Shown here in pieces: positions 8,476 through 58,267 of a stretch of 64,000 nucleotides of DNA. Numbering within the stretch: the first letter of the stretch is position 1; each line of letters begins with the position of its first letter. Under the pieces are notes generated by a model, which ran no database searches, had not been told where the DNA came from, and saw only the letters and a list, made by a program, of their open reading frames with translations. The stretch is taken from the NCBI GenBank assembly GCA_016125385.1, contig WGLV01000021.1:31429-95428 (forward strand). The letters run 5' to 3'. The DNA comes from a bacterium. Its GTDB lineage: Bacteria; Hinthialibacterota; Hinthialibacteria; Hinthialibacterales; Hinthialibacteraceae. Made by a program: the position numbers and the translations under genes.

Positions 8476-8573
<98 letters not shown>

Positions 8574-28709: not shown

Positions 28710-28826
28710 GTGAAGCCGCCTCGTTTCCGTAATTGATACGATCTTCACCTGACATTATAGAACCGGTTTGCGGAAGCGAAGAGATTTCACCAGGCGCGGC
28801 GGCGGCAAGACGGGGAGATAAAACAA

Positions 28827-28857
28827 GCAGGGGGCGGGTTTCAAACCCGCCCCCTGC
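28827..28857. repeat. Hairpin-A palindrome (GCAGGGGGCGGGTTT-c-AAACCCGCCCCCTGC)
   Basis: Perfect 15-bp inverted repeat upstream of cobA. It belongs to the dispersed family that also occurs at 29165, 33737, 35743, 36172 and 58085. Confidence 0.8.
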
Positions 28858-28949
28858 GATCTGACGACTCTCATTTACCTGTCGAATCCGTGTTCCCCGT
28901 GTTTCTCATTCGCCAAAATTCAAAGGCGGTTCTCAATCACTGACCCGTC

Positions 28950-29345
28950 AGTGACCAGCGGGAGCGTTATACGCATACAGCCCAAAGACTCGCCACGGCC
29001 GCTGGCCGCGGCCAACGCGAGCGGTTTTGATTCTCCCACCGAATATCGGGGGGATTTAGAGGGGGGGGGGGGTGAGCGCACGATTGAAAGAGCCGCGCAT
29101 CCCGACAACCCCCTCCTTCGCCTCCCCCATCTTGGGGGAGGAAAACGACGTTCGATCACGCCTCAGGGGGCGGGTTTGAAACCCGCCCCTACGGCCGACC
29201 GTTTCTGATTTATCAATCGGTTATGTGTTTCCAGCGTTCCTGGTAAACCAAAAATCCGAAACCGTTTCTGCATCAGATCGCCTTAGCAACCAACGGGCGC
29301 GCTATACGCGTACAGCCCAAATACCGGGCAGCCGACACTGTCGGC
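28950..29345. repeat. Composite multi-hairpin intergenic repeat element (inverted orientation relative to the 35.4-36.2 kb copies)
   Basis: It contains a diverged R-unit at 28955..29020, a G/C homopolymer, and the GACAACCCCCTCCTTCGCCTC block. It also contains hairpin B at 29121..29141 (CCTCCCCCA-tct-TGGGGGAGG), hairpin A at 29165..29190, and an R-unit plus hairpin C at 29291..29345 (GCCGACA-c-TGTCGGC). Confidence 0.75.
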
Positions 29346-29352
29346 AGACCGC

Positions 29353-30900: not shown

Positions 30901-31248
30901 ATGGATCGTGCTTTGGGACTCATTGAAACACGCGGCCTGATCGCCGGCATCGAAGCCAGCGACGCCGCAGTGAAAGCCGCCGAATCGGTCATCTCTCAAC
31001 TGGAATACAACGTTCCGGGTATGGTTACGGTGAAGTTGCGCGGCGGCGTGGCCGACGTGCAAGCCGCCGTCGAAGCGGGCGCATCGGCCGCGCGCCGGGT
31101 GGGAGAAGTAATTTCGGCGCACGTGATTCCCCGGCCGCATGAAGACGTGGAAGCCCTGATCGCGCATGAGCCCGAAAGCACCATGACCGGGCCTGATGTT
31201 TTGATGAAGCGAACCGGGGAGAAGAAAGACGGCAAGTCGAAGAAGTAA
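30901..31248 (+). CDS. Bacterial microcompartment shell protein, BMC-H (PduA/EutM-like) with a basic C-terminal tail
   Basis: ALGLIETRGLIAGIEASDAAVKAA......VTVKLRGGVADVQAAVEAGASAARRVGEVISAHVIPRPHEDVE is a canonical BMC-H (PF00936) sequence. A GAAGGAG ribosome-binding site is present. The C-terminal KRTGEKKDGKSKK tail is extra. Confidence 0.8.
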   Translation: MDRALGLIETRGLIAGIEASDAAVKAAESVISQLEYNVPGMVTVKLRGGVADVQAAVEAGASAARRVGEVISAHVIPRPHEDVEALIAHEPESTMTGPDVLMKRTGEKKDGKSKK

Positions 31249-31425
31249 ATTTTTCCTGCTCTTTTTTCTCTGCTGAACTGATTTTTTGTTATCTCATTGC
31301 AAGCGCCTCATCCAACTGGGGGATGGATGCGCCTGTTTCCGGAATGTTTGTATTGGCGGTTTCCGCCTGAATCATTTATGGGGTCGTACTCTGGTTTGAT
31401 TTTTTTCCTACAGGGAGGCAGTTTC

Positions 31426-32046
31426 ATGAAAAGGGAAGGTTTTACACTGATTGAATTGCTCATCGTCGTCGCCATTATCGGAATTCTGGCGGCCATCGCC
31501 GTGCCCAACTTTCTGAACGCTCAGATGAGGGCCAAGGTCGCCCGCGTGGTGTCGGACATGAAGGCGGTGGCGATGGGTGAAGAGCAGTATCGACTCGACC
31601 GCAACCAGTATACCTACGATGGCGATTGCGGCGTCGGCCAGGCCGAACACCTGTCGTATGTTCCGCTTACCACCCCCGTCGCGTATCTAAGCAGTTTCCC
31701 CGAAGACGCATTCGCCGGAATCGATCCGAAGTTTCAGAACCGTCAGACGATCAAAACCGGGTTGAAACCCGTGTACGAATACACCTCGCGTGTATCGTTT
31801 GGCCCGCAGGGCACGCCAAACTGCAAAAACAATACGACCACTTATAGCACTCTGGGCCGGATCGGCGTCGAATATCTCATGACCTCACTGGGTCCGGACG
31901 GCGATCAGGATTTCCCCTGGGGCGCGAACGATTACGTGATTCTTCGTGAGCGAAACGCCGGATTCATCTATCAGCCTTCAAACGGGCTTGTTTCAAACGG
32001 CAACATCTTCGTATTGAACAGCCAGATCATCGGCGGCAATAATTAA
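31426..32046 (+). CDS. Prepilin-type N-terminal cleavage/methylation domain protein (DUF1559-like pseudopilin)
   Basis: The internal ATG at 31426 has a GGGAGG ribosome-binding site. GFTLIELLIVVAIIGILAAIAVPNF is the class III signal peptide motif, in which G|FTLIE is the cleavage/methylation site. Confidence 0.7.
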   Translation: MKREGFTLIELLIVVAIIGILAAIAVPNFLNAQMRAKVARVVSDMKAVAMGEEQYRLDRNQYTYDGDCGVGQAEHLSYVPLTTPVAYLSSFPEDAFAGIDPKFQNRQTIKTGLKPVYEYTSRVSFGPQGTPNCKNNTTTYSTLGRIGVEYLMTSLGPDGDQDFPWGANDYVILRERNAGFIYQPSNGLVSNGNIFVLNSQIIGGNN

Positions 32047-32083
32047 GCGAATTATTCGCCGCGATTATCAATCAGCCTTTGCG

Positions 32084-32115
32084 ACGGGACGGTGAATACC
32101 GTCCCGTTTTTGTTT
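32084..32115. terminator. Rho-independent terminator after the pseudopilin gene
   Basis: ACGGGACGGT-gaat-ACCGTCCCGT is a 10-bp perfect stem followed by TTTTTGTTT. Confidence 0.65.
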
Positions 32116-32212
32116 ACCTCGCCGCGCGTAATGTGTTCCTTCACAGAGACGAACGCGGTTTGGTATCGTTGTACAAAGAAGCAAACCAGATGAAATACGA
32201 GGAGACGGTATC

Positions 32213-33721
32213 GTGAGTCTGCTTGGCATCGACGTGGGAACCACCGGCTGTAAAGCCGTCGCATTCAACGAAGAAGGTAACATTCTGGCCTCGGCGTACC
32301 GGGAGTATCCCCTGCACGCCCCCAACCCGGGCTGGGCCGAACTCGACAGCAACCAGGTCTGGCGCGACGTCAAATCGTGTCTGGGCGAGATCGTGGCGAA
32401 AACGGCGGCGGACCCGGTGAAAGCGCTGGCGGTCTCCTGTCAGGGCGAGGCGGTGACGCTCACCGCCGAAGACGGTTCGTTTCTCTCGAACTCGATCGTC
32501 AGTTTCGACACGCGAACCGAACCGTACATCCGGCAGTGGGAGGAACGCTTCGGCCGCGAGCGCATCTTCGGGGTCACCGGCCAGCCGCTGGCCTCGATCT
32601 TCACCGGGCTGAAATTGCAGTGGTATCGCGAAAATCAACCCGATGTGTTGAAGAAAACACGCTGGGTTTTGGGTTATGAAGACCTGATCAATTACAAACT
32701 GACCGGCGAGGCGGTGACCGATTATTCGCTGGCGGGCCGCACCATGCTCTTCGACGTAACCCGGCAGGACTGGGACGATGAGTTTCTCGGCTTCGCCGGG
32801 GTCTCGCGCGAGGTTATGCCCCGGCTGGCGCCCTCGGGAACGCTGGCGGGGACGATCGACGCGCTGGTGGCGGCCGAGATCGGTCTGCCGCAGGGCGTAC
32901 AGGTCGTCACCGGCGCACACGACCAGCCCTGCCAGACCCTGGGCGCGGGCGTCACGGAAGCGGGCGTCGCGGCCTACGGCGTGGGGACGGTGGAATGCGT
33001 GTGCGCGGCGTTCGGCGAGGCGCTGCTCAACGACGCCATGCTGTCGAATAATATATGCTGCTATCACCACGCCTGCCCCGAACACTACATCGCGCTGGTT
33101 TACAACTACACCGGGGCGGTTCTGTTCCGCTGGTACCGCGACCAGATGGCGAAGGACGAACTGCGCCGCGCCAACGAGAGCGAGCGCGACGTGTACGACC
33201 TGTTGACCAGTGAAGCCGCCGCCAAACCCACGCGGTTGCTGGTTTTGCCTCATTTCACCACCACCGGCGTGCCTCATTTCGATAACCGCAGCAAGGGCGC
33301 GATTCTCGGCCTGACGCTCGACACCACCAAAGCCGAACTGACGCGCGCCATTCTCGAAGGCGGAACGTATGAGATTCGTCAGGGAATGGAGCTGTTGAAG
33401 AACGCGGGCGGCGCGGTTGAAACCTACCGCGTCACCGGCGGCGGCGCCAAGTCGGATTACTGGATGCAGATCAAAGCCGATATTCTCGGCGCTCCGGTCG
33501 AGGTTCCCGCCGTACCGGAAGCGGGTTGTCTGGGCGCGGCGATTCTGGCGGGCGCGGCGACCGGATCGTATTCATCGATCCGCGAAGCGGCGCATCAGCT
33601 GGCGCGCACCGAAAAAACCTTCGAGCCCGATCCGGAAAACCAGAGGATCTACGACGAGCGCTTCGAGTGGTATAAAGAGATTTATCCGCGCAACAAAGAC
33701 CTGTTCCACAAGATGACCTGA
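32213..33721 (+). CDS. FGGY-family carbohydrate kinase (xylulokinase-like)
   Basis: The N-terminal LLGIDVGTTGCKAV sequence is an actin-fold phosphate-1 motif. The length of 502 aa and the C-terminal GGGAKS motif fit the family. Confidence 0.75.
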   Translation: MSLLGIDVGTTGCKAVAFNEEGNILASAYREYPLHAPNPGWAELDSNQVWRDVKSCLGEIVAKTAADPVKALAVSCQGEAVTLTAEDGSFLSNSIVSFDTRTEPYIRQWEERFGRERIFGVTGQPLASIFTGLKLQWYRENQPDVLKKTRWVLGYEDLINYKLTGEAVTDYSLAGRTMLFDVTRQDWDDEFLGFAGVSREVMPRLAPSGTLAGTIDALVAAEIGLPQGVQVVTGAHDQPCQTLGAGVTEAGVAAYGVGTVECVCAAFGEALLNDAMLSNNICCYHHACPEHYIALVYNYTGAVLFRWYRDQMAKDELRRANESERDVYDLLTSEAAAKPTRLLVLPHFTTTGVPHFDNRSKGAILGLTLDTTKAELTRAILEGGTYEIRQGMELLKNAGGAVETYRVTGGGAKSDYWMQIKADILGAPVEVPAVPEAGCLGAAILAGAATGSYSSIREAAHQLARTEKTFEPDPENQRIYDERFEWYKEIYPRNKDLFHKMT

Positions 33722-33736
33722 CAGCAAGCGATCGCA

Positions 33737-33774
33737 CGGGGGCGGGTTTCAAACCCGCCCCCGCGGCTTTTTTG
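33737..33774. terminator. Hairpin-A copy acting as an intrinsic terminator for the kinase gene
   Basis: CGGGGGCGGGTTT-c-AAACCCGCCCCCG has a 13-bp stem. It is followed by TTTTTTT. It starts 16 nt after the stop codon. Confidence 0.75.
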
Positions 33775-33897: not shown

Positions 33898-35436
33898 ATG
33901 ACGACTCGCCGGATCGACGCGGGCCTGATGATTCTGATCGGGCTGGCGGCGCTGAAACTCGCCCTGCACCTCTACGTCAACATCGCTCTCCCCGAACCGT
34001 ATGGAATTTTCCGCGACGAGCTGTATTACATCGCCTGCTCGGAGCGGCTCGACTTCGGCTACGTCGATCATCCGCCCTTGTGCGCGGTGACGCTGGCGGC
34101 GTCGCGCACCGTGCTGGGCGATTCGCTGCCCGCGCTCCGATTTTTACCGGGGCTGTTCGGCGCGGGGGTTGTCGTGCTGGCCGGGCTGCTGGCGCGCGAA
34201 CTGGGCGGCGGGACGCGGGCGATGGCGCTGGCGGGCGCCGCCGCGCTGGCGATGCCGGTGGCGATGGCGGTGGACAATTTTTATTCGATGAACGCGTTCG
34301 ATCATCTGGCGTGGATGACGGCGGCGTACCTGCTCGCGCGGCTCATCAGGCGCCCCTCCCTCGGTTTGTGGATCGCGCTGGGAGCCGCACTGGGGCTGGG
34401 GCTGCAAAACAAGATCAGCGTGCTGTTTTTCGGCTTCGGGCTGACGGCGGGTCTGGCGCTGACGCCGCTGCGCAAGTGGTTTGCCGACTGGCGGCTCTAT
34501 CTGGCGGGCGCGATCGCTCTGGCGATTTTCACGCCGCACATCGTCTGGCAGATCGCGCATGGCTGGCCCACGCTGGAGTTCATCCACAACGCGAAGACTT
34601 ACAAAAACCTGCCCATGACGCCGGCGGCGTTTTTCATACAAACCTCACTGGAAGCAAACCCGGTCTCACTGCCGCTGTGGCTGATGGGTCTCTGGTTTTT
34701 TATGTTCAGCCGCGCGGGGCGCGATTTTCGCGTATTCGGCTGGATCTTCGTCATTGTGACCGGCGTGTTTCTGATGCAGAACGCCAAGACGTATTACCTC
34801 GCGCCCGCCATGCCGATTCTGATGTCGGGAGGCGCGGTTTGGCTGGAGAGCGTATGCGCCACGCGATGGGCGCGCGCGATTCCACCCGGTTACGCCGCGT
34901 TGACGCTGATCTGCGGCGCGCTTCTGGCTCCGCTGGCGCTGCCCATCCTGCCGCCGCAAGCCTTTCTGGCGTACGCGAAAGCGGCCGGCGTGCAATCTCA
35001 ACCCGGCGAGCGCGGCGACTTCGGCGAGCTGCCGCAGGTATTCGCCGACATGATCGGATGGAAGCAAATGGCCGAAGAACTCGGCAAGGCGTATCAATCG
35101 CTCTCCCCCGAAGAACGCGAGCGCTGCGCGATCGTGCTCGATAACTATGGCCAGGCGGGCGCGGTGGAGTTTTACGGCAAACCTTACGGACTGCCCACCC
35201 CCATCTGCGGGCATAACAATTATTACTTCTGGGCGCCAGAGAATCCACCGTGGGACATCATTATCACGCTGGGAGCGCGCGAGGACGCTGAGGGAAAGGT
35301 TGAATCGATCGAGGAGGCGGGTGTTTTCACCATCCGCTATTCACGCGAGTTTCACAATCCATGCCCGGTGCTGATCCTGCGCGATCCAAAAATAACCTAT
35401 CAGGAAGCGCTGCAAGGTCTGAAACATTTCATCTAG
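33898..35436 (+). CDS. GT39/GT83 (ArnT / PMT-like) membrane glycosyltransferase
   Basis: It is a polytopic membrane protein of 512 aa. An early periplasmic loop carries DELYYIACSERLDFGYVDHPPL, the DE-like motif of ArnT/PMT-type enzymes. Confidence 0.65.
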   Translation: MTTRRIDAGLMILIGLAALKLALHLYVNIALPEPYGIFRDELYYIACSERLDFGYVDHPPLCAVTLAASRTVLGDSLPALRFLPGLFGAGVVVLAGLLARELGGGTRAMALAGAAALAMPVAMAVDNFYSMNAFDHLAWMTAAYLLARLIRRPSLGLWIALGAALGLGLQNKISVLFFGFGLTAGLALTPLRKWFADWRLYLAGAIALAIFTPHIVWQIAHGWPTLEFIHNAKTYKNLPMTPAAFFIQTSLEANPVSLPLWLMGLWFFMFSRAGRDFRVFGWIFVIVTGVFLMQNAKTYYLAPAMPILMSGGAVWLESVCATRWARAIPPGYAALTLICGALLAPLALPILPPQAFLAYAKAAGVQSQPGERGDFGELPQVFADMIGWKQMAEELGKAYQSLSPEERERCAIVLDNYGQAGAVEFYGKPYGLPTPICGHNNYYFWAPENPPWDIIITLGAREDAEGKVESIEEAGVFTIRYSREFHNPCPVLILRDPKITYQEALQGLKHFI

Positions 35437-35439
35437 CGG

Positions 35440-36200
35440 GCGGCGCCCGCGGCCAGTCTTTTGGGCTGTGCGCGCTTACCGCTCCCGTTGGTCGCAGGCG
35501 GACAGTGTCCGCTGCCGGGTCTTTGGGTCGTGCGTGTTTTGCGCGCCCGTTGGTTGCTGACGTATGCGTGATCGATATCCGTCTTCGGAATTTTGGGGAA
35601 TGAGAGACGTGGAGAATTTTTGAGCGTTTGATTTACGAGATGTGTCATGTTGCAGAGGCACGCCGCTCGCGCCGGTTTGCTTTTTTCGTGTCATTCATTC
35701 ATTTCGTGTTTTCGTGATTCTAAAAGAAACCATTCGGTTGCAGGGGGCAGGTTTGAAACCTGCCTCTACGGTGGGTGCGATCGAGCGAGCTTTCCTCCCC
35801 CAAAGTTTGGGGGAGGCGAAGGAGGGGGTTGTCCGATAAATCGCAAAGTTTGTTCGAGGCGCTCACCCCCCCTCTAACTCCCCCCGATCTTCGTGGGGAG
35901 AATTTTTCAACGCTCCCGTTGGTCGCTGGCCGACAGTGTCGGCGGCCGAGTCTTTGGGGCGGTGCGTGTTAAACGCGCCCGCTGGTTGCTGACGTATGCG
36001 TGATCGATATCCGTCTTCGGAATTTTGGGGAATGAGAGACGTGGAGAATTTTTGAGCGTTTGATTCACGAGACACGGCGGGTTGTAGGGGCATGTTGCAA
36101 CGCGCCCGTTTGCTTTTTTCGTGTCATTCATTTCGTGTTTTCGTGATTCTAAATGAAACCATTCGGTTGCAGGGGGCGGATTTGAAATCCGCCCTTGCGA
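35440..36200. repeat. Tandem duplication (about 430-bp period, two copies) of a structured repeat element with a 100-nt invariant core, bounded by hairpin A copies
   Basis: Copy 1 spans about 35481..35767 and copy 2 about 35911..36194. The segment gctgacgtatgcgtgatcgatatccgtcttcggaattttggggaatgagagacgtggagaatttttgagcgtttgatt is identical in both, apart from one change further on. Hairpins C and A differ between copies by compensatory substitutions. Hairpin B and the GAGGCGAAGGAGGGGGTTGTC block lie between the copies. Confidence 0.8.
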
Positions 36201-36253
36201 CGAGATTGAGCGGCGATTTTTTCCAAAATCAGGGTAGTTAAACCGCCAGCACG

Positions 36254-37996
36254 CTATTTTCCATCGCCCCAGTGTTGAATGAGGATGAGCAGGTCTTTCG
36301 CGTCGACGACGCCGTCGCCGTTGAGGTCGGGATCGCCCGCGACAGGCGTGGGCCGCATCGGCGTGGGAGTGACTTGAGGCGTGGGCGTGACCGTCGGGTC
36401 GGGAGGAAACAGAAACGGCGTCGCGGTGGGCGCGGGCGCGCCCGGCGTGGCGGTGGGCAGCGGCTGAAGCAGCGACGCCGTTACGATGACGTTATTCTTA
36501 GAATCGATCACCACCAACCCGACGCGGCCATCGCTGAAAAAACGCCCCGGCGCGGCGAAGACAGGGTTCTCGACGCTGAAGACGGTTTGCGTCCGCCCGC
36601 CGGTGGGGCCATCGGTGCGCTGAAAGGCGCGCACGCCGCCCGCCGCGGGAAAGACGAAATCGCTGAGGCCGTCGGCGTTGAGGTCGTATGCACGTAGAGG
36701 AAAGCCCACCGATCCCGCCGGCAGCCGCGCTTCATCGGTCGAGACGCTTCCATCGTCTTCGAGGCGGACGCGGCTGAAATACAGCGTGGGGTCGACCTCG
36801 CCGGTGGGAGAGAACGCGGCCAGCTCAACCCGAGCCGGGTCGATGGGGCGCGCGGCGAAGGCGCGTTGCAGCGTTGGATCGGTCAGCGTCAGTTTGATCG
36901 CGTTTAAGAAGTTGAGATCGGGGCTGCTGAACAGAATGTACGGATCGACGTTGGATGACGTACCGCCGCGCGAGCGGGTAATGAACAACTCGTCGCGGCC
37001 GTCACCGTCGAGATCGCCCTTCGCGAGGAAACGCCGCCCAAGGCCGATCAGGTCGCCCTCCAGCTTGAAGGTTCCATCGCCGACGCCGGTGAAGATTTTG
37101 GGGATGCCGCCCACGATCAGATCGAGCGCGCCGTCATCATTCACGTCAACCAGCGTAAGCGCGTCGAGCGCGGTGGTCAGCGATACGTCGGCCTGAAAGC
37201 CGGACGCGAAACCGCCCGCGTCATTGGCAAGAAACACGGTCAGGTGAACGGACGCCGACCCGGAGGCCTGCGACGCCGCCACGAAGTCAACCAGGTCATC
37301 ACCGTTGACGTCGCCCGTCGCGACCCGCGAGGGCGCGTCGATCTGCATGTTCAGCGGGATCGAGATCAGGCCCGAGCCGGACGAAGTGAAGAGGTCGACG
37401 CGGTTAGAGGCTTTGTAGAGCAGAAACAGGTCGTCGAGCCCGTCGCCGTTCATGTCGGCGGTTTCGACCCCCGTAACCGCCGCGCCCACGGTAAAGCGGC
37501 TTTGCTCGGCGAACAGCTCGGCGGGCAATGGAACCGGCGTGGGCGGCGGCGTCTGAAACGCCGAGGCGGGTTTTACCTTTAATCCCCAGCCGATCAATGT
37601 GCCGGTCGCGCCCTCGACGAGGTCGAGCACGCGCAGTTTCCATTCGCCCATCGGGCTTCGATTGAGAAAACGCGAGAGCGGTTCGGCGGGGGCGTCGAGC
37701 GTATCGTAAACGGGGTGAAAGGGCGCGTCATCGGACGGAGTCCGGTTGTGCAGAATAATGCTCTCGCCGCCGGGATGAACCAGCGAGACGATCAGCTGTT
37801 CAACGGCGGGGTGATCGATCTCGAACGAGACTTGCAGTTCTTCGAGCGGTTCGCCGCCGGGGACGTAAATCGAATACGCCGCGCCCGTGACGGCGTCGTT
37901 ATCGGGAATGGGCAGATCGGCGCGCACTTCGGCGACGGCGTACGGCGTTTCGGCGGTCTGGGCGCGCGCGAGCATGGGCGCCGCGAGGCAGACCAT
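36254..37996 (-). CDS. Secreted FG-GAP/VCBS-repeat protein with a Pro/Thr linker and a C-terminal dockerin-like module
   Basis: There are repeated DxNGDGxxD motifs (DMNGDGLDD, DVNGDDLVD, DLDGDGRDE, DLNADGLSD). A PT-rich linker is followed by DLNGDGVVDAKDLLILIQHWG at the C-terminus. The start is assigned to the ATG at 37996, just after the uvrB stop. The upstream part of the ORF track overlaps uvrB and is not believed. Confidence 0.6.
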   Translation of the reverse strand: MVCLAAPMLARAQTAETPYAVAEVRADLPIPDNDAVTGAAYSIYVPGGEPLEELQVSFEIDHPAVEQLIVSLVHPGGESIILHNRTPSDDAPFHPVYDTLDAPAEPLSRFLNRSPMGEWKLRVLDLVEGATGTLIGWGLKVKPASAFQTPPPTPVPLPAELFAEQSRFTVGAAVTGVETADMNGDGLDDLFLLYKASNRVDLFTSSGSGLISIPLNMQIDAPSRVATGDVNGDDLVDFVAASQASGSASVHLTVFLANDAGGFASGFQADVSLTTALDALTLVDVNDDGALDLIVGGIPKIFTGVGDGTFKLEGDLIGLGRRFLAKGDLDGDGRDELFITRSRGGTSSNVDPYILFSSPDLNFLNAIKLTLTDPTLQRAFAARPIDPARVELAAFSPTGEVDPTLYFSRVRLEDDGSVSTDEARLPAGSVGFPLRAYDLNADGLSDFVFPAAGGVRAFQRTDGPTGGRTQTVFSVENPVFAAPGRFFSDGRVGLVVIDSKNNVIVTASLLQPLPTATPGAPAPTATPFLFPPDPTVTPTPQVTPTPMRPTPVAGDPDLNGDGVVDAKDLLILIQHWGDGK

Positions 37997-38024
37997 CAGC
38001 GCCAGGGCGAGGACAGCCCAGCGG

Positions 38025-40142
38025 TCAGCGGCCCGGGCGGCGCTTGCGCGGGGCGGGACGGGGCGCGCGTTGCGGCGCGCCGCGATCGGGAGCCTCCATG
38101 CCGGCTTGTTCGAGTTCAGCGATTTTGTCACGGTATACCGCCGCTTTTTCGAATTCGAGATTTTTGGCCGCTTCCACCATGCGCCGTTTGAGTTCGGCGA
38201 CGGCGTCTTTGCTGCTGCGGGTTTTGACGATGACCGATTCGGAGATTTCGTACAGCAACTCCTCCGTCTCGCGCCGTTTAACCGAGCGCGCCTCGAGAAT
38301 CGAGCGCACCTTCTTCTGGATGGTTTTCGGAATGATTCCATGCTTTTCATTGTAGTCAAGCTGAATCCGGCGGCGGCGCTCCATCTCGGCGATGGCGCGG
38401 TCCATCGATTTGGTCGGCTTGTCGGCGTACATCACCACCTCGCCGGCGACGTTGCGGGCGGCGCGCCCGCAGGTCTGAATCAGCGAACGCTCGTCGCGCA
38501 GAAAGCCTTCGCGGTCAGCGTCGAGAATGGCCACTAGAGAAACCTCGGGCAGATCGAGCCCCTCGCGCAGCAGGTTGACGCCGACGATGACGTCGAACTC
38601 GCCGCCGCGCAGCCCCTCGAGTATCTCGGCGCGCTCAAGGGTATCGACCTGAAAGTGAAGCCAGCGCACCTTGATGCCCAGGTCCTGCATATAGCCGCTC
38701 AGGTCTTCGGCCATGCGCTTGGTGAGCGTAGTGACCAGCACGCGCTCGTTGCGCGCGATGCGCTCGCGCACGCGGGCGATGAGATCGTCGACCTGACCGG
38801 TGGCGGGCCGCACGGTGATCTTGGGGTCGACCAGACCGGTGGGACGGATGATCTGTTCGGCGATATTCTCGCTGTTTTTGACCTCGATCTCGGCGGGCGT
38901 GGCCGAGACGAAGATCGACTGGTTGATCGAGTTCCAGAACTCTTCAAAGGTGAGCGGGCGGTTATCGAGCGCGGAGGGCAGGCGGAAGCCGTAATCGACC
39001 AGCGTCTGTTTGCGGCTGCGGTCGCCGCCCGACATGCCGCGAATCTGGGGCAGCATGATGTGCGACTCGTCGACGATGAGCAGAAAGTCGTCGGGGAAAT
39101 AATCGATCAGCGTGCTGGGCGGCATGCCGGGGTCGCGGCCGTCGAGATGGCGCGAATAATTTTCAATGCCCTGGCAGAAGCCGGTCATCTCCAGCATTTC
39201 GAGATCGTAGGAGGTGCGCTGTTCGAGCCGTTGCGCCTCGACCAGCCTGCCCTCGCCGCGCAATTGCTGGAGGCGCTCGCGCAGCTCTTCGCGGATGGTT
39301 CCCACCGCGCGTTGCAGGCGCTCGGGCGCGGTGACGTAATGGCGCGCGGGGTAGATGGTGATGCGCTGATGTTCGCCCACCACTTCGCCGGTCAGCGGAT
39401 CCATGGCGAGGATGCGGTCGACGTCGTCGCCCCACATTTCGATGCGGTACGGGTGTTCGCCGTAACCGGGGAAGATTTCGATCACATCGCCGCGCACCCG
39501 CATGGTTCCGTGGTGAAAGTCCATGTCGTTGCGGTGATATTGCAGATCGACCAGGCGGCGCAGCAGGCGCTGGCGCGGGATACTGTCGCCCACCGCGATG
39601 GGGCAGATCATCTCGCGGTATTCTTCAGGCGAACCCAGACCGTAGATGCACGACACCGAGGCGACGATGATCACGTCGCGGCGCTCCATCAGGTTGGTGG
39701 TGGCCTCCAGCCGCAGGCGCTCGATCTCGTCGTTAATGGTGACTTCCTTCTCGATAAAGACGTCTTTGGAAGGGACGTAGGCCTCGGGCTGATAGAAGTC
39801 GTAATACGATACAAAGTAACCCACGGCGTTATTAGGGAAGTATTCCTTGAACTCGCTGTATAGCTGGGCGGCCAGCACCTTGTTATGGGACATGATGAGC
39901 GTGGGCTTGTTAACCCGCGCGATCACGTTGGCCATGGTGAAGGTCTTTCCGCTGCCGGTGACGCCCACCAGCGTCTGGTATTTCTTTTTTCCGAGCACGC
40001 CCTCGGCGAGCGACTCGATGGCGGCGGGCTGGTCGCCGGTCGGCTGGTACTCCGACGCCAGTTCGAAGGGGATCTCTTTGACGCCGTGTTCGTCGCGCCG
40101 CGCCGCACTCTCGGTAATCGCCTGGATTTTTTCAACTCGCAT
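38025..40142 (-). CDS. uvrB: Excinuclease ABC subunit B
   Basis: The protein is 705 aa. The Walker A motif is GVTGSGKT. Helicase motifs and a C-terminal UVR domain ([16 protein letters not shown]) are present. Confidence 0.95.
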
Positions 40143-44228: not shown

Positions 44229-45104
44229 ATGCGACCGTTGACTGCGGCAAAGATTTATAACCTCTTTTCCGAAACTGCTGTTTTCATGTCATGTGAAGAC
44301 AACTTGTCATTCATGCGTCCTTTACCCTGCGAGAGCATGAAGTTGATCGTGACATCTCCACCTTACAACATCGGGAAAAAATACGAAAAGAATTCTCCTC
44401 TCGATCAATACATCGATCAGCAAACAAGAGTAATTGATGAATGCGTCCGATTGCTTCACCCGAATGGTTCGATATGCTGGCAGATCGGTAATCACGTTCA
44501 GAAGGGCGAAATAATTCCGCTCGACGTGATTCTGTACCCAATTTTCAAAAGGCATGGTTTGCACCTTCGCAACCGTATAGTCTGGCACTTTGAACATGGA
44601 CTTCATTGTTCAAAGCGCTTGTCAGGCAGATATGAAACCATTTTGTGGTTTACAAAAAACGACGAGTACACGTTTAACCTTGATCCCATTCGAATTCCCG
44701 CCAAGTATCCTCAAAAAAAGTATTTCAAAGGTCCGAAACGAGGACAGTTATCGGGGCATCCGGACGGCAAAAATCCTGGCGATGTATGGGTGATTCCCAA
44801 CGTGAAAAACAATCACGTTGAAAAAACAATTCACCCGTGTCAGTTCCCCGTCGAATTAATTGAACGTCTAGTTTTAGCGCTAACCGAGCCAGGTGATGTC
44901 GTTTTTGATCCATATATGGGTGTTGGATCAAGTATAATCGCCGCCGCAAAGCATGACAGAATCGGTTATGGATGCGACACCGTTAAGGAATACGTTAAAA
45001 TCGCTTGGGAACGAGTTAATCAGCTTCAGGCAGGAACATTACGAACGCGCCCCATGGGGAAACCGGTATACGATCCTACGAAACCAAACGGCGGGCATTC
45101 ATGA
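44229..45104 (+). CDS. Site-specific DNA methyltransferase (beta-class N4-cytosine or N6-adenine; SPPY motif)
   Basis: The catalytic motif IV is VTSPPYN. The SAM motif I, DPYMGVGSS, lies near the C-terminus, which is the beta-class order. A GAGGAG ribosome-binding site is present. The GC content is markedly lower (about 45%) than the surroundings. Confidence 0.8.
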   Translation: MRPLTAAKIYNLFSETAVFMSCEDNLSFMRPLPCESMKLIVTSPPYNIGKKYEKNSPLDQYIDQQTRVIDECVRLLHPNGSICWQIGNHVQKGEIIPLDVILYPIFKRHGLHLRNRIVWHFEHGLHCSKRLSGRYETILWFTKNDEYTFNLDPIRIPAKYPQKKYFKGPKRGQLSGHPDGKNPGDVWVIPNVKNNHVEKTIHPCQFPVELIERLVLALTEPGDVVFDPYMGVGSSIIAAAKHDRIGYGCDTVKEYVKIAWERVNQLQAGTLRTRPMGKPVYDPTKPNGGHS

Positions 45105-45712
45105 AAATCGTTGAATTCTATTCACACCTGAACGGACATGAATACATTCTCGTTCATAAGCCCTCTCTATGGAATGAAATTGAATCCATCATCTATGGAA
45201 TCAATGCGGAAGAATGCAAAACGAAAATTTCCAAAGAAAAACGAATGATTGGGAAAACTTTGTATTCTCCGAAAGACATGAATAAAAAAATGCAATCTGG
45301 ATTTCAAAAAAAGCACTGGGAAGAAAAACGAATTTCGTACTGGGTAACCAGAGACGCGCAATTGATCAGGAAAACCCTTCACCTGTCCGCCGCCGAGCAA
45401 AAACAGGAGATCGAAGAGGCAGGCCAGGAAGCGATCTATTCGTACAACCAGACGGATTTCGTCAAAGACCGAATCGCGGTCGAAGTTCAATTCGGCAAAT
45501 ACGCATTTGTGGCGTTCGATCTATTCGTCAAGCATCTCGCGTTTTACGTCGGCGACATGATCGACGTGGGCGTCGAGATTCTCCCCATGAAATCGCTTCA
45601 ATCGCAAATGTCATCCGGCGTAGCGTATTATGAAGGCGAGTTGTACAACCTGATCCGAGAAGGACGCGGCGTACCCGCTGTTCCGCTGGTACTCATCGGC
45701 ATCGCTCCATGA
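45101..45712 (+). CDS. Putative type II restriction endonuclease partner (BglII/BstYI-like?)
   Basis: Its start is translationally coupled to the MTase stop by an ATGA overlap. It has the same low GC. DRIAVEVQ is a possible PD-(D/E)xK-type D...E-x-Q active site like that of BglII. The family call is tentative. Confidence 0.35.
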   Translation: MKIVEFYSHLNGHEYILVHKPSLWNEIESIIYGINAEECKTKISKEKRMIGKTLYSPKDMNKKMQSGFQKKHWEEKRISYWVTRDAQLIRKTLHLSAAEQKQEIEEAGQEAIYSYNQTDFVKDRIAVEVQFGKYAFVAFDLFVKHLAFYVGDMIDVGVEILPMKSLQSQMSSGVAYYEGELYNLIREGRGVPAVPLVLIGIAP

Positions 45713-49503: not shown

Positions 49504-52500
49504 TTACCGGGCGCGGGCTTCACGCGCGGGGATGCGAATCTCCACATCGCGCATGACCGGCGAGACGAAATCGGCGCCGGTCAGGCCGAACTGAGCCTGA
49601 AACTGGAGATAGTCGCCCTGGCCGCTGATGCGCATTTCACCCTCGGCGCCCTCGGTTTTTTTGGCCCAGGGGAAGTACTGAAGCGAGCCATCAGGCTGTC
49701 TCATCACCCAGCGCCCCCAGAGTTGAAGCGAGGCCGTCTCGGGGATGTCGGCGTCCCACGTGATGACGGCCGGTTTTCCGCCGGAGCCTTCCGCCGGATA
49801 AAGCGGCGAGATGTAGAGCGCGCTGACGGGCGCGCCCGGCGCGCGGATGAAGCGCACATCGGACACGCTGGTTGAATATGGCCCCGGCACGGCTTTGAAA
49901 TCGATGGTGAAATAATCGCTGAGCAGCCGCTGGGCGCCAAGCGAATAAAAACCATCATCGCCGCCGTCTTTGACGTGTTCGATGATTTTGTACTCTTGAT
50001 CGTTGGCGGTTTTCACCGCGATTTTCGCCGATTCGCCTTTGTCATACGCCGAGCTGTACAGCCTGACGGAGGTGTTATACACCCCCTGCGGCGTGGGCAG
50101 GCTGGCCTGAAGGACGGTATCTTTGCCCGTGGGGGTGACGAACAGATTGAAGCGGGTGAACCACATCCATTTGTCGCTGGACGAACTTAACCCAAAAAGG
50201 TCCTGATTGGCGACGAAGGCTGGAGCGACGCGTTGGCGAAACTCCATCACGCCGGGAATCAGCACGAGCCCCTCGAGTTTTTCGTCAAAGGTCAGGAACT
50301 CCATCTCACCGGCGGTGAAGTGGTCCTGATCGGTCACCGAGTAGACCCGTTCACGATTGACGATGGGCGCGGCGGGCATCTGCAGTTTGACGTCGAGCCG
50401 TTTGACCAGCGAGGCGTTATTGTTCTCGCCCGATTCTTCATCCTTTTCAGCGATCAGGTCGTATTTATCCACCTCAATCGAAAGCGTGTTTTTGCTGGAG
50501 ACCAGCGGCGTTTCAAATTCCGTTTCAGCAACGACGTTTCGCGGCACGCGGTCGAAGAAATGGATCAGTTCATTCTGATTCAACATCAGCGAAAGCCGGA
50601 CATAGGTCGCGTCTGAATCGCCCATGTTGCGAGTGCGGGCGTGAATCAGAAGAGGATCGCCCCAGATGGGAATCGGTTTCGGATCGCCCAGTTCCATCGA
50701 ATGATCGAGCCAGGCGTCGACCTGAAGATCGGGCAAACCGGCCAGATTCACCGAAGTGGTGATTCGATTATTGGTCTCGTCGAGCTCTTTGATTCCATCA
50801 TTGGGGTCGACGACGATGGAAATCTGGTTCGCGCCCAATCCGTCGTACGCGTCCGGATCCCAGACCAGTTCGATCTCTTTGCGCTCGCCGGGTTCCAGCC
50901 GGTCGATCACCGAACGCTGCGACTTATGAAACGGGAGCAGGCGTTTTTTCTCAGCCGGATCGCCGAGAAACGCTTCGACGCGCACGTCGTCAGCCGACCC
51001 GTCGCCGACGTTATAAACGTTGGTTTTGAAATAGACCGTATGCCCCACCTCGGGGCGATCGGGCTTAATCACAAGATCGCCCTCGGCCAACGCCAGGTCG
51101 GGCTTGCCCAGAACCTCGAACGCCATCGGGAACTCTTTCGCGTAGCCTCCCTCCGCCGTCACATTCAAAACGTAACTCGCGGTTCCGGCTTCTTCAGGCA
51201 ACTGGACGATAAAGTCAAGCGACTTGTCGACGTTGGGCTCCAGCGTAACGCTCTGTACCGCATCAGCCGCGCCGGGGCCGGTCAACCATGCGTTCAGGCT
51301 GGCGGGTCCGGAATCGCCGGTGTTGACGAACGGCAGACGCATGCGAACCGATGAGCCTTCGATCAGGTCATTCGTGTTAAAACTCACCGCGCCGGTTAAC
51401 GGAGTAACGGGATAATCGGGCTGATCAAGCATGACGCGCAGCGAATCTTTACCCCGGACCGATTTCAACCCGAGGTATGGATCGTCTTCCATCCTGACGA
51501 AAGCAAAGCGAGAGCCTTCGGGGATTTCTCCGCGCCATTCCACGTCAACGGTCGATTCGGCGGGGATATCGGCGATGGAGACGTACTGCGTCTCGCCGGA
51601 ATCGATGCGCAGTTTGCATTCGGCCTGATGAACGGGGAACCGCGTCGGGTTGGCGGCCTGAAATACAACGACGGTTTCACTTCCGTCACGGCTGGCCGCA
51701 CCGCCCGAGATTTCAATTTGCGGTTCATACAGCGGAAGCGTCACCGCGCCCCACGCGTCGGCGCGCCGCGATTCGTTCCAGGCGTACACGCGGATCGCGG
51801 CGGTGGAAGCGTTCAGGTTCGACGCCTGACCGGTGAAGGTATGACGAATGGGCAGCGAATCGAACACGAACGGTTTGCTCTCGTACACGGTTTCGTGACC
51901 GTCCGACATCGAGACGATCGCCATACCGGTCGTGAACGTGATGTCGTCCGCGCTGACGGCGAACTGCTGCTCTTCGTCCGCATAGTAATAAGGTTGATCG
52001 ACGCTGACATTGAGATGCTCTTCGGGTTGATTGATTTCGACCGCCGGATCGCCGAAGAGAATGTACTGATCGACCAGGTCGGTATTGGTGTAGGTCTGCA
52101 TGAACTCGGTTTTGCAGAAAGTAGTGGCTTCGCCGAGCCTCGTGACGCCGTCTTCAAACAGCAGGCGCATGAGGGTATGCGAGAGAATCATGTGCTGGTC
52201 GGTGGTTCCGCCGCCGCTGGGTCCCCACACCGCGATGCCGCCGCGATCGGGATAGCGCATCAGTTCTTCAGACAGGCAGACGTGAAACGGCGGACGATTG
52301 TAATTGAGCAACCCGGTCAGGCACGACCAGCTGAGAATAAAGGGAAAACGATCGTTGGGTTGCAGCTCGAGGACGTTGCTGGTGGGGCGCTCGGTTCCGT
52401 AGAAGATGCGCTCATGCGACCACAACTGGTTTCCGCCGTGGCCAATGTATTGCATCAGCAGCATGCCCTGATTCATGTGATCGAGAATGGAGAGGGTACA

Positions 52501-54936
52501 TTCAGGGCAATATTTTTTATTGGTGTATTCCTTCGCCTCGGGCGAGTCGTCATGCACGAAGCGGTGATACAGATACGGATTGGTGACCTCGGGATACTCG
52601 ATCTGATCGATGAACGCGTTTTCGATAAACGGCGGTACGCTGTCGCGCGCCTGTTCGGCGGCGTAGCGCTCGAACGAGTCGTCGCTGATGAACAGATTGC
52701 GCGCCTTCCAGGGGCCGACGGGCGCGTCGTATTCGTAGGTCAACACCTTCTGGATGTAGTTCGAGACTTCCTGGGGAGTGCGCACCGAGATGCGGCCCAG
52801 GATCACGTCGTAATAATAATCGTCGCCGGCGCCCCACAACATTCCGTAATATTCATCGGAGGCGAAACGCTGAGGATCGTTCAGCGGCGCGTAGGTGGGG
52901 ATCTGGTCGGTCATGCCGCCGCCTTCATTATCGCGGTGATCCCACGATGAGTCGCCGACGAAAACCACGAACTCGGGCGACAATCCCGTCCAGCGCGATT
53001 GAGCGTATTGAAGAAAACGCTTGATGGCGTCGAAGTCGGGGTAGCCATAGTTGAATTCATCGTAGATGTCCTGCACGTCGATCAGCTGAACGGAAAACCC
53101 TTCATCCGCGCGGTGTTGAGCGAGCACGCGCGCGCTCTCAAGCAGTTTGTGATAGGCGATGACGAGGTAGTTCGCCCCCTGATCGGCGCGATGCAGCGAC
53201 GAGGGGTAATCGAGATCGACGGTATACGGCCGCGGAACGCGATCGTCGCGCTCGATGACGAGAAAATCCCAGTCGCCGCCGGGCGCCTGAACGGGTTCGT
53301 CTTTCTGCATGACGGGAAGACGCAGCCATCCTGACAATTGCTCGTCCTTAACGGCGAATACGCTGGCTGAAACGCGCGTCGTCAGGCGAGCCACGCCCAG
53401 CTGAAAGGCGGCGGGCCGGTTCTCACCGCTTTCGACCACGATGGGGGTCTGCAACAGGCTGACCGTGCGCGGGTAATCGACGGTCAATCGATCGAAGAAC
53501 AGGTGAGGAATATCGCCGACTTTATCGCTGCCGCCGGCGGCCAGCTCATCGACGGGTTCGGGCTTTTTGTCGAGCCGAACCGCCAGCGTGGCGTTTTCAG
53601 CCACGCCCGAGGCGGGGACGACGAAGACGGCGGTGGTCGCCTCTTCAGGCCGGGCGTGGAAGTATTTTTTTTCGCCCGCCAGTTCCAGCGTAAAGCCGGG
53701 CAAGTCGCGCATTTTGTTATAGGTGTCGATCTTGATGACGATGTCGCCCTGGGGCGCGATTCCAGTCAGCGCGAGCGGGATGACGGTATCCTGCTCTTTC
53801 ATCTGGATGGCGTACCAGTCAAACGAACGCAGCCCTTTTTTGACGAGAATTTTGTCGCCGCCCTTTTCAAGGCTCGACCGGACGATTTCTTCTCCGCTTT
53901 GCGCGGCCCGCGCCTCCTGGGGTTCGATGCGCAACGGCGGCTCGGGATTGGGCGACCAGGTCAGAAAATACTGGCTGTACTGGGTAAAAGCCGAGTCGGA
54001 AGCCTTGCTGAAAAAATAGACGGCGTCTTTCTGATTCAACACGCCGTCGCCATTCTCATCCTGAACGGCGGCGGGCTGCTGAACGCCGCGCAGCCAGACG
54101 CGCACCTCGTCGAGTTTAACCACAGCGGGGTCGAGCCCCTGCTTTTTAAGATCGATCGGTCTGACCGCCACCACGCCGGCGCCAGACGTCAACACGCGGA
54201 CGCCATCGGTTCGAGGCGCGGGGTCTTTTTCAATCCAACCCGGCGCGGGCGCGTTTTCATCATACTGCAACACGGCCGGAGCGAAGCCCGCCGCCGCGTC
54301 TTCATCAGAAATCGAGCGTTTGCGGCGCAGCCCGGGCGTATCGGCGCCATTGATGCACATCTCGCGGAACAGGCGTGAATAGCCCGCGTCGAGACTGGAT
54401 CGCTGCGATGGAGCGGGCGCGCCGTTTTCCGTCCAACGGACGTCGAACACCACCCAGGCAAGGTTAACCTTGTCTCGCTTGTAGGCCGGCTCGGTGGCCG
54501 AGTTGGGCGCGTCGGACGACGGTTTGACGGATACGTCAAGAATATCGAGTTCCTGAAACTGCTTGCGGGCGGTCTCGATCGCGTCTTTCAGCAATTCGGC
54601 GCCGTCATCGGATGATGCCGGATTGTTTTCTTCTTTTATATACGGAACGGATCGGCCATCACGGCCATCGACCGTAAAATTCCAGCCAACAGCCTGCACT
54701 TCCACCGTCGCGCCAACGGGAACGCCCACGTAAATCGAAGACTCCCGATTGGCGTACGACGGGTCTTCAAGACGAGTATAACGGATCAGCGCGTGGCTCT
54801 CGCTGGAGGCCAGCAGTTCAAATTCTGGTTTGTTGGCGGGTGAAAAATCGTTTTTCGTGCGATAAGCATACGATGTACCGACAAACAGGCAAAAGAGGCT
54901 CAATGTCAGGGCCGCTCGGGTGATCGACAATCTCAT
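49504..54936 (-). CDS. Giant secreted peptidase C25 (gingipain/clostripain-like) family protein, about 1810 aa
   Basis: The signal peptide starts at an internal M (MRLSITRAALTLSLFCLFVGTSYA). The central block YLVIAYHKLLESARVLAQHRADEGFSVQLIDVQDIYDEFNYGYPD...FVVFVGD...YIGHGGNQLWSHE...ILSWSCLTGLL matches the C25 architecture with a His-Gly / Cys dyad. Long beta-rich regions lie on both sides. Confidence 0.55.
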   Translation of the reverse strand: MRLSITRAALTLSLFCLFVGTSYAYRTKNDFSPANKPEFELLASSESHALIRYTRLEDPSYANRESSIYVGVPVGATVEVQAVGWNFTVDGRDGRSVPYIKEENNPASSDDGAELLKDAIETARKQFQELDILDVSVKPSSDAPNSATEPAYKRDKVNLAWVVFDVRWTENGAPAPSQRSSLDAGYSRLFREMCINGADTPGLRRKRSISDEDAAAGFAPAVLQYDENAPAPGWIEKDPAPRTDGVRVLTSGAGVVAVRPIDLKKQGLDPAVVKLDEVRVWLRGVQQPAAVQDENGDGVLNQKDAVYFFSKASDSAFTQYSQYFLTWSPNPEPPLRIEPQEARAAQSGEEIVRSSLEKGGDKILVKKGLRSFDWYAIQMKEQDTVIPLALTGIAPQGDIVIKIDTYNKMRDLPGFTLELAGEKKYFHARPEEATTAVFVVPASGVAENATLAVRLDKKPEPVDELAAGGSDKVGDIPHLFFDRLTVDYPRTVSLLQTPIVVESGENRPAAFQLGVARLTTRVSASVFAVKDEQLSGWLRLPVMQKDEPVQAPGGDWDFLVIERDDRVPRPYTVDLDYPSSLHRADQGANYLVIAYHKLLESARVLAQHRADEGFSVQLIDVQDIYDEFNYGYPDFDAIKRFLQYAQSRWTGLSPEFVVFVGDSSWDHRDNEGGGMTDQIPTYAPLNDPQRFASDEYYGMLWGAGDDYYYDVILGRISVRTPQEVSNYIQKVLTYEYDAPVGPWKARNLFISDDSFERYAAEQARDSVPPFIENAFIDQIEYPEVTNPYLYHRFVHDDSPEAKEYTNKKYCPECTLSILDHMNQGMLLMQYIGHGGNQLWSHERIFYGTERPTSNVLELQPNDRFPFILSWSCLTGLLNYNRPPFHVCLSEELMRYPDRGGIAVWGPSGGGTTDQHMILSHTLMRLLFEDGVTRLGEATTFCKTEFMQTYTNTDLVDQYILFGDPAVEINQPEEHLNVSVDQPYYYADEEQQFAVSADDITFTTGMAIVSMSDGHETVYESKPFVFDSLPIRHTFTGQASNLNASTAAIRVYAWNESRRADAWGAVTLPLYEPQIEISGGAASRDGSETVVVFQAANPTRFPVHQAECKLRIDSGETQYVSIADIPAESTVDVEWRGEIPEGSRFAFVRMEDDPYLGLKSVRGKDSLRVMLDQPDYPVTPLTGAVSFNTNDLIEGSSVRMRLPFVNTGDSGPASLNAWLTGPGAADAVQSVTLEPNVDKSLDFIVQLPEEAGTASYVLNVTAEGGYAKEFPMAFEVLGKPDLALAEGDLVIKPDRPEVGHTVYFKTNVYNVGDGSADDVRVEAFLGDPAEKKRLLPFHKSQRSVIDRLEPGERKEIELVWDPDAYDGLGANQISIVVDPNDGIKELDETNNRITTSVNLAGLPDLQVDAWLDHSMELGDPKPIPIWGDPLLIHARTRNMGDSDATYVRLSLMLNQNELIHFFDRVPRNVVAETEFETPLVSSKNTLSIEVDKYDLIAEKDEESGENNNASLVKRLDVKLQMPAAPIVNRERVYSVTDQDHFTAGEMEFLTFDEKLEGLVLIPGVMEFRQRVAPAFVANQDLFGLSSSSDKWMWFTRFNLFVTPTGKDTVLQASLPTPQGVYNTSVRLYSSAYDKGESAKIAVKTANDQEYKIIEHVKDGGDDGFYSLGAQRLLSDYFTIDFKAVPGPYSTSVSDVRFIRAPGAPVSALYISPLYPAEGSGGKPAVITWDADIPETASLQLWGRWVMRQPDGSLQYFPWAKKTEGAEGEMRISGQGDYLQFQAQFGLTGADFVSPVMRDVEIRIPAREARAR

Positions 54937-58265: not shown

Positions 58266-58267
58266 TA

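Follow-up and report, generated by a model that had tools for sequence, protein, structure and literature searches.

What keeps one segment of a duplicated intergenic region unchanged while the sequences on either side of it diverge? This question is raised by the spacer between a gene encoding a glycosyltransferase of family GT39 and a gene encoding a protein with FG-GAP and proprotein-convertase P domains, in a 64,000-nt stretch of contig WGLV01000021.1 (referred to as the window, whose numbering is used for all positions). The initial annotation of this DNA described a tandem duplication of ~430 bp with an invariant core of ~100 nt and gave preference to a selected functional element (a small RNA [sRNA], a riboregulator, or a promoter) over gene conversion. 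Our analysis favors the second option. On balance, it is probable that the spacer consists of clustered intergenic repeats that are modular, rich in hairpins, and specific to the lineage, comparable to the repetitive extragenic palindromic (REP) sequences assembled into bacterial interspersed mosaic elements (BIMEs) or to BOX elements, and that the core is identical in the two copies through recent duplication or gene conversion. The same order of modules recurs at a second locus of the window.

The spacer (35437-36253) is 817 bp long and contains 55% GC, versus 58% for the window. Pfam matches confirmed the GT39 and FG-GAP assignments of the flanking genes, which are convergent, so that the spacer separates their 3' ends. 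Two copies of ~285 nt, A1 (35480-35764) and A2 (35911-36193), are 87.8% identical (blastn E = 2e-97) at a spacing of 429 to 433 nt. The presence of two copies, starting at 35480 and 35911, was therefore correctly recognized in the initial annotation, but these copies are not head-to-tail units of 430 bp, since they are parted by a single 146-nt module designated P (35765-35910). The longest exactly identical run comprises 83 nt (35551-35633 and 35983-36065), or 89 nt if one mismatch is allowed, rather than ~100 nt. This run is real and nonrandom (permutation p = 4e-5 for an 83-nt run in the 293-column alignment of A1 and A2, which contains 38 differing columns). A second near-identical block, at 35675-35748, shows one substitution and a 4-nt indel between the copies. 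The flanks have diverged with compensatory changes in hairpins, as initially proposed: two stem pairs covary between the copies (GCGGAC..GTCCGC versus GCCGAC..GTCGGC and CAGG..CCTG versus CGGA..TCCG).

The source of this DNA is a metagenome-assembled genome (MAG), and short-read assemblers are known to mis-join at repeats. The tandem arrangement might accordingly be an assembly artefact, resulting from a collapsed or expanded repeat, and contigs of the independent Logan assembly of SRR10063241 do break in this region. One of these contigs ends at window position 35580, exactly 30 nt inside the core, as expected at k=31 if two different left flanks join one shared sequence. Such a break requires two left contexts in the reads, and the duplication is therefore not the artefact of one assembler. 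In addition, the 38 differing columns show that one copy is not a trivial duplicate of a single assembled path, and the second locus displays the same dimeric order. The duplicated block in the GT39/FG-GAP spacer is real, and we regard an artefactual tandem arrangement as extremely improbable.

Related sequences were detected by comparing the window to itself, and the loci were named site A (the GT39/FG-GAP spacer), B, C, D, and E. Four family modules, X, core, T/T', and P, were defined from all copies. Module X (~62 nt) comprises, in this order, a 6-bp hairpin whose loop is AGT, GGTCTTTGGG, another GC hairpin, and CCCGTTGGTYGC (short form CCCGTTGG) as its tail. The best-conserved part of the core module is GAATTTTGGSGAATGAGARAC. 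Module T is a GC-rich palindrome, G(T/C)AGGGGCGGGTTTSAAACCCGCCCC, and a U-run often follows T or T'. Module P (~135 nt) is made of three hairpins of G- and C-runs. The order at site A is X0-X1-core-T'-ATlinker-T-P-X2-core-T'-ATlinker-T, and the features of this locus are as follows.

33898-35436, plus strand: upstream GT39/PMT_2 glycosyltransferase gene (Pfam PMT_2, E = 4.5e-20), with a TAG stop codon at 35434-35436.
35436-35497, plus strand: X0, a degenerate copy of X, with hairpin 1 GCGGGCGGCGCCCGC at 35436-35450, beginning at the G of the stop codon.
35498-35559, plus strand: X1, with hairpin 1 at 35498-35512, GGTCTTTGGG, hairpin 2 at 35525-35548, and the tail CCCGTTGGTTGC; 84 bits with the covariance model of X.
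35551-35633, plus strand: core copy 1, 83 nt identical to 35983-36065, G/U-rich and unstructured.
35634-35690, plus strand: T'1, the "variable" segment, a degenerate hairpin of the T family that aligns with T hairpins and is followed by GTTTGCTTTTTTCG; -14.1 kcal/mol.
35675-35748, plus strand: AT-rich linker 1, differing from 36108-36177 by one substitution and a 4-nt TCAT indel.
35740-35769, plus strand: T1, a REP-like palindrome that forms the hairpin GCAGGGGGCAGGTTTGAAACCTGCCTCTAC and has CTAC as its tail; -17.6 kcal/mol.
35775-35910, plus strand: P, in single copy, with hairpins at 35794-35816, 35818-35878, and 35879-35901 formed by G5-8/C5-8 runs, the last one followed by AATTTTTC.
35911-35926, plus strand: the 16-nt X-tail motif CGCTCCCGTTGGTCGC, identical to 35480-35495 and forming the left boundary of A1 and A2.
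35929-35991, plus strand: X2, with hairpin 1 GCCGACAGTGTCGGC; 80.6 bits with the covariance model.
35983-36065, plus strand: core copy 2, identical to 35551-35633.
36066-36123, plus strand: T'2, a degenerate hairpin of the T family with the head GTAGGGGC, followed by GTTTGCTTTTTTCG; -16.8 kcal/mol.
36108-36177, plus strand: AT-rich linker 2.
36169-36198, plus strand: T2, the hairpin GCAGGGGGCGGATTTGAAATCCGCCCTTGC; the convergent FG-GAP gene has its stop codon 55 nt away; -25.1 kcal/mol.
36254-38359, minus strand: downstream, convergent FG-GAP/proprotein-convertase P-domain gene (Pfam).

Apart from one substitution and the 4-nt indel, the 38 differences between A1 and A2 are confined to X (35496-35550), T' (35634-35674), and the T region (35749-35768), the latter comprising the T stem and the bases just 3' of the stem. 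T'1 and T'2 differ at 15 positions in 41 nt. The modules that differ are those belonging to multicopy hairpin families. The sequences that are preserved are the linkers between hairpin modules, namely, the core (83/83 identical) and the AT-rich block (one substitution and the indel).

The survey of X and T covered ~92 kb of readable DNA of the source genome and yielded 8 copies of X at 4 loci, 6 T hairpins, and 2 T' hairpins, all intergenic. Site E is at the far end of Logan contig L008, ~8.5 kb past the window end, and consists of a 5'-truncated X abutting the stop codon of its upstream gene. The duplication is thus located between the GT39 and FG-GAP genes, as initially stated, but its modules are not restricted to that spacer. 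The other sites are the following.

28826-29352, minus strand: site B, a sister composite with the order X-core-T-P-X-core-T, located after the TAG of a GFO/IDH/MocA oxidoreductase gene, the first X hairpin starting 7 nt past the stop.
58090-58267, minus strand: site C, with two copies of X, the first truncated at its 5' end and the second full, and then the first hairpin of P and T (X-X-P(a)-T), directly after the TAG of the gene for a transketolase C-terminal subunit.
33738-33762, plus strand: site D, consisting of one T hairpin and the TTTTTT that follows it, 16 nt past the stop codon of an FGGY kinase gene; -29.8 kcal/mol.

Site B supports the preferred explanation, since it reproduces the order X-core-T-P-X-core-T. 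The T1-P-X2-core2 segment of site A aligns with site B with 72% identity over 317 nt (E = 3e-32), and P is kept in the same position at both sites. P is therefore a module of the family, and the dimeric composite is present at two loci. The AT-rich linker is present in both units of site A and absent from both units of site B. The covariance model of X matched exactly the known copies (74 to 85 bits for the five full copies) and gave no match in "Candidatus Hinthialibacter antarcticus" or at the other loci examined. Site D is a classical intrinsic terminator by prediction.

Comparison of the modules between the loci bears directly on the origin of the identity of the core. X1 and X2 are 81% identical, and the X modules of site A are 83% and 80% identical to those of site B, 6 kb away. 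Hairpin 1 of X2 has the same sequence as hairpin 1 in the first X of site B, rather than that found in X1. Across loci, no module is less conserved than the core, with 64% identity between site A and the second core of site B, 58% between site A and the first core of site B, and 62% between the two cores of site B. The two units of site B are 60% identical overall, and their longest stretch of identity measures 13 nt. Conservation of the core is therefore not a property of the family as a whole. We infer that its identity is local to site A, and the occurrence of the AT-rich linker in both units of that site points in the same direction. Most likely, the identity of the core is explained most simply if low-copy linkers at site A were recently duplicated or homogenized by gene conversion, and the evidence leans toward the gene conversion that the initial annotation had offered as its alternative.

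The function suggested first in that annotation would instead require the core to be preserved by selection. In one form of this hypothesis, A1 and A2 are a tandem pair of sRNA genes, or a source of sRNAs derived from the 3' untranslated region (3' UTR), specifying ~140-nt plus-strand RNAs that end at T' and its U-run. The core would be the target-pairing domain held by purifying selection, and the stems would drift in a compensatory manner. The nonrandom length of the identical run is in keeping with this hypothesis, as is the prediction that the core is single stranded. Both cores are followed by a different stable hairpin and UUUGCUUUUUU, a layout found in many Hfq-type sRNAs. With folding energies of -14.1 and -16.8 kcal/mol and the following GUUUGCUUUUUU, T'1 and T'2 also qualify as intrinsic terminators. 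Tandem sRNA paralogues with identical functional cores are represented by PrrF1 and PrrF2 of Pseudomonas aeruginosa and by OmrA and OmrB of Escherichia coli. Like these pairs, the locus has two adjacent copies in which an identical segment, single stranded by prediction, precedes a terminator-like hairpin with its U-run. Unlike these pairs, it has no detected promoter and no conservation in other genomes, its units belong to a dispersed repeat family, and a near-identical block extends past the putative terminator, which the sRNA model does not predict.

Several additional observations argue against the sRNA pair. A sigma-70 scan revealed no promoter-like site, although this is weak evidence since the sigma-70 model may not fit the promoters of this phylum. 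No Rfam family matched the core. The core was absent from the representative genomes of GTDB and from the JGI metagenomes, and the nearest relative has unrelated modules. The cores of site B are only 58 to 64% identical to that of site A and have diverged from each other. We consider the sRNA pair an unlikely explanation. We are equally doubtful of the broader proposal that each unit encodes a plus-strand regulatory RNA, processed from the GT39 3' UTR or independently produced, in which the 83-nt G/U-rich domain is functional, and that the X hairpins adjacent to stop codons form a genome-wide system tuning translation termination or mRNA decay. Thus, a selected functional core appears to be the less likely of the two options: the core is unstructured, lacks an Rfam match, and is the least conserved module across loci, and X1 and X2 are no closer to each other than to X at site B.

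Folding predictions assigned structure to the modules around the core rather than to the core itself. Hairpin 1 of X is paired in 97% of cells of the alignment, with double compensated changes at 2 of its 6 pairs and three pair types at one pair, and its folding energy ranges from -12 to -15 kcal/mol; hairpin 2 is less regular. Folding energies of the T hairpins range from -17 to -32 kcal/mol, with U-runs downstream of some. GTAG or CTAC ends are present on the first T of site B and on T1 and T'2 of site A, and GCAG or ACAG ends are present on others. T' and T share the head GTTG(C/T)AG(A/G)GGCA, and T'1 and T'2 form different but stable hairpins, each followed by GUUUGCUUUUUU (UUUGCUUUUUU). 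T'1 looks like an intrinsic terminator on the plus strand, and the last P hairpin with AATTTTTC was also called terminator-like. P is significantly structured at sites A and B (z = -2.9 and -2.0, respectively, versus shuffled sequences). The core is less structured than shuffled sequences on the plus strand (z = +1.9) and no better on the minus strand (z = +0.25), and the whole units fold only modestly better than shuffled sequences (z = -0.8 to -2.9). A long-range helix between the 3' part of the core and the U-rich block was predicted but not retained, since the region folds no better than shuffled sequences (z = +0.96 and -1.13).

The core might also act as DNA, as a duplicated protein-binding site, operator, or minus-strand promoter under selection. 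It contains the short palindromes ATCGAT and GATATC and, on the minus strand, an IHF-like sequence, AATCAAACGCTCA, all of which are weak matches read by eye from the sequence, and the adjacent AT-rich block is also conserved. However, the spacer separates convergent 3' ends, so that there is no gene for a promoter or an operator to control, the promoter scan found nothing, and the cores of site B have diverged. Such a signal is therefore very improbable. The minus-strand open reading frames predicted across the core had been considered noncoding, and our results agree with this view: a profile search found nothing among 5.8 billion proteins (E <= 10), and the copies differ by 1- and 4-nt indels.

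The position of the arrays with respect to genes is regular. Each of the four loci that carry X has its array oriented like the upstream gene, with a start 0 to 7 nt after the stop codon: the first hairpin begins at the G of TAG at site A and 7 nt past the stop at site B, and at sites C and E it is a truncated X that abuts the stop. These arrays follow unrelated genes, which encode the GT39 protein, a GFO/IDH/MocA oxidoreductase, a transketolase subunit, and, at site E, an Exo_endo_phos protein (TGA stop). The idea that the element supplies a rare TAG stop codon was rejected, since TAG is used by 13 of the 45 genes of the window and its presence at 3 of the 4 X-bearing sites is not unusual.

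Under our preferred explanation of the spacer as a cluster of interspersed repeats, the array, with its modules strung in a fixed order and in the sense orientation of the upstream gene, would form the 3' end of the GT39 transcript. Transcription would be stopped by a series of intrinsic terminators, namely, the T and T' hairpins with their U-runs, and these hairpins, along with X and P, would also hold back 3' exonucleases. At site A, the array would insulate the convergent GT39 and FG-GAP genes, and a hairpin lying 0 to 7 nt past a stop codon may influence the termination of translation as well. A1 and A2 would have arisen by local duplication or by recombination within the composite. As low-copy linker DNA, both the 83-nt core and the 74-nt AT-rich linker would have been recently duplicated or homogenized by gene conversion. 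X, T', and T would diverge or be overwritten rapidly, through exchange with other family members or through hairpin-templated mutation involving template switching. Ectopic exchange or hairpin-templated template switching would introduce changes in pairs, hence the "compensatory" appearance of the differences. The family would spread and remain mosaic through recombination among its copies.

Six points weigh against this scenario. (i) The two near-identical blocks are split by a 41-nt segment that is 37% different, so that one simple conversion tract is insufficient; the model therefore needs patchy conversion or a later replacement of T'. (ii) Donors for the ectopic exchange of X, T', and T were not found in the ~92 kb of genome DNA. 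(iii) The copies of X are all direct, whereas REPs alternate in orientation in classical BIMEs. (iv) Perfect identity over 83 nt is also expected from strong selection on a site-specific RNA. (v) Neither a transposase nor a REP-associated tyrosine transposase (RAYT, Y1) was found in the window. (vi) The function of the array at gene 3' ends is one that we infer.

The behavior of X and core in assembly suggests that the window holds only part of the family. Among the 8 contig ends examined in the Logan assembly of SRR10063241, 5 fall within X or the core (window positions 29292, 35580, 58220, and 58240 and position 1 of L008). These ends point to additional near-identical copies elsewhere in the genome, and short-read assemblies of the source organism fragment because contigs end in these repeats. 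One further Logan contig end (8511) falls within a pair of paralogous tRNA-Ser genes, located at 8484-8571 and 8651-8740 on the minus strand, which have the anticodons GCT and TGA, are adjacent, and are 77.5% identical.

Dispersal raises the question of mobility. The composite might be a nonautonomous mobile element whose T modules are mobilized by a RAYT or another system, with a core derived from a recent master copy or needed for mobility. In accordance with this proposal, the whole composite is found at two loci in opposite genomic orientations, some T hairpins have GTAG/CTAC ends, the same palindrome is multicopy in unrelated high-GC contigs of IMG/VR, and the assembly breaks at X modules. 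On the other hand, no terminal inverted repeats or target-site duplications surround the units, whose boundaries are the 16-nt direct motif, and they do not have the structure of miniature inverted-repeat transposable elements. The window contains no transposase gene, the boundaries at stop codons are ragged (X is 5' truncated at sites C and E), and the cores differ strongly between loci. We hold mobility of this kind to be rather improbable.

The T palindrome itself has a wider distribution. The sequence (GTA)GGGGCGGGTTTSAAACCCGCCCC(TAC) is found six times in the window (28832-28852, 29168-29188, 33740-33760, 35745-35765, 36174-36194, and ~58098-58119). It is also present in unrelated high-GC IMG/VR contigs (L030-L039), often several times per contig (4 in L035 and 6 in L039) and usually with GTAG...CTAC ends. 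The palindrome may be a very widespread REP-type or terminator element; it was not found in the literature searched.

The closest known parallels are the REP and BIME sequences of enterobacteria and Pseudomonas. The similarities include short GC-rich palindromes combined with other conserved motifs in ordered clusters, the order being recurrent at sites A and B, and stable stem-loops. REPs are extragenic, located mostly at the 3' ends of genes, and cotranscribed, with roles in termination and in protection of mRNA 3' ends that are presumed by analogy for the family described here. Part of the T hairpins have a GTAG/CTAC-type end, and homogenization and mosaicism through recombination among copies would be common to both. 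The differences are as follows: the sequences are unrelated; all copies of X are direct (sense) rather than alternating in orientation, the orientation of T being ambiguous since this module is near palindromic; no RAYT gene was seen in the source DNA examined; the units are longer (~285 to 430 nt, including an unstructured 83-nt linker); and the host belongs to an uncultivated lineage related by synteny to "Candidatus Hinthialibacterota" (OLB16). Judged from its sequence, the spacer is a new, lineage-specific example of interspersed mosaic hairpin repeats, strict membership in the REP/BIME class not being established.

BOX elements of Streptococcus pneumoniae (boxA-boxB(n)-boxC) are similarly modular, with few subunit types in variable copy number, and they are intergenic and noncoding with strong predicted secondary structure. 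They share no sequence similarity with the spacer, differ from it in their modules and order, and do not systematically abut stop codons. For this last property, stop-proximal REPs offer a parallel. Liang, Rudd, and Deutscher, in Mol Cell in 2015, are said to have reported that E. coli REPs within 15 nt of a stop codon stall terminating ribosomes. The first X hairpin is likewise located 0 nt (site A) or 7 nt (site B) after the stop. In contrast, the truncated X of sites C and E abuts the stop without an intact first hairpin, and an effect on translation is only a possibility in the present case.

Searches were extended beyond the source genome. A degenerate 19-base pattern of the core was used to query 185,579 representative genomes of GTDB and the JGI metagenomes. 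It gave one chance match in the former and five in the latter, none accompanied by module X. The search of other genomes proposed in the initial annotation thus returned no true match in these collections and no Rfam family. No match was obtained by blastn in plasmid and phage collections. In the Rfam scan of the window, only the two tRNA-Ser genes passed the gathering threshold, and none did so for the core. A permissive scan of 35300-36400 gave sX13 as the best hit, with 21 bits versus a threshold of 50, in P rather than in the core. For module X, 19 pattern matches in IMG/VR were discarded, as they showed no wider similarity.

The GT39 protein is 100% identical to the NCBI MAG protein GC154_09125, and its closest nonself homologue, among 5.8 billion proteins, is 49% identical. 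A comparison of syntenic spacers in close relatives is impossible because there is no GT39 relative above this value; two candidates for closer relatives, P0003 and P0004, proved not to be syntenic. The 49% relative is "Ca. Hinthialibacter antarcticus," a member of the candidate phylum Hinthialibacterota/OLB16 (PMC9324843). The gene order GFO_IDH-BMC-N_methyl-FGGY-GT39 is common to that genome and the window. In the window, the genes for a BMC shell protein, a prepilin-type N_methyl protein, and an FGGY sugar kinase (30901-33721) adjoin the GFO/IDH/MocA oxidoreductase gene.

In "Ca. Hinthialibacter antarcticus" (GCA_030765645.1, JAVCCE010000012.1), the GT39 gene is followed by a 1014-bp spacer (L010:10109-11122). 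Hairpin modules of that genome's own fill this spacer in a tandem array whose periods are 97 and 327 nt, and at the DNA level the array shows no detectable homology to the modules of the window. In the array, the terminal 56 nt of the GT39 coding sequence (10053-10108, ...DPKTPIKDLWRDAKKFI*) recur as two degenerate, in-frame copies (10282-10337 and 10609-10664; p < 1/3000). These relics of the GT39 3' end prove that the array grew by local tandem duplication, the end of the gene having been copied repeatedly together with the downstream hairpins. The corresponding idea that the core of the window is a relic of the GT39 3' end was rejected: a profile of 119 GT39 C termini matched only the real gene, and the core gave no significant local alignment with the relic or with either coding-sequence end (p = 0.23 to 0.85). 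Elsewhere in that genome, after the stop codon of the FGGY kinase gene (L010:6918-7000), two inverted GTAGGGTGGGTC...GACCCACCC(TAC) hairpins are located 22 nt apart. They form a REPIN-like doublet of the organism's own T-type palindrome.

If the preferred explanation is correct, the spacer is an ordinary and neat case of mosaic hairpin repeats colonizing gene 3' ends in a barely studied candidate phylum, and recombination among multicopy modules can give the false impression of a conserved core between diverged flanks. This calls for caution in the discovery of noncoding RNAs: an identical block within diverged duplicates need not be under selection and may be the neutral part, the flanks being modules with fast turnover. 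The modules are also relevant to the assembly of MAGs, as they break short-read contigs. If the core were instead a transcribed regulator, it would be the first sRNA candidate for a lineage related to OLB16/Hinthialibacterota, and the stop-abutting hairpins would form a system of 3'-end control.

Three other features of the window were noted. Read from TTG 38359, the longest open reading frame of the FG-GAP gene shares 335 nt (38025-38359) with the 3' end of uvrB; the true start is therefore probably located further downstream, at GTG 38131 or ATG 37996. A gene for an N6/N4 DNA methylase (44229-45104) and a gene for a BglII-family restriction endonuclease (45101-45712) overlap by 4 nt and form a type II restriction-modification pair (44229-45712). 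Finally, a very large open reading frame on the minus strand (49504-55044) encodes 1846 amino acids with Peptidase_C25 (gingipain-like) and CARDB domains.

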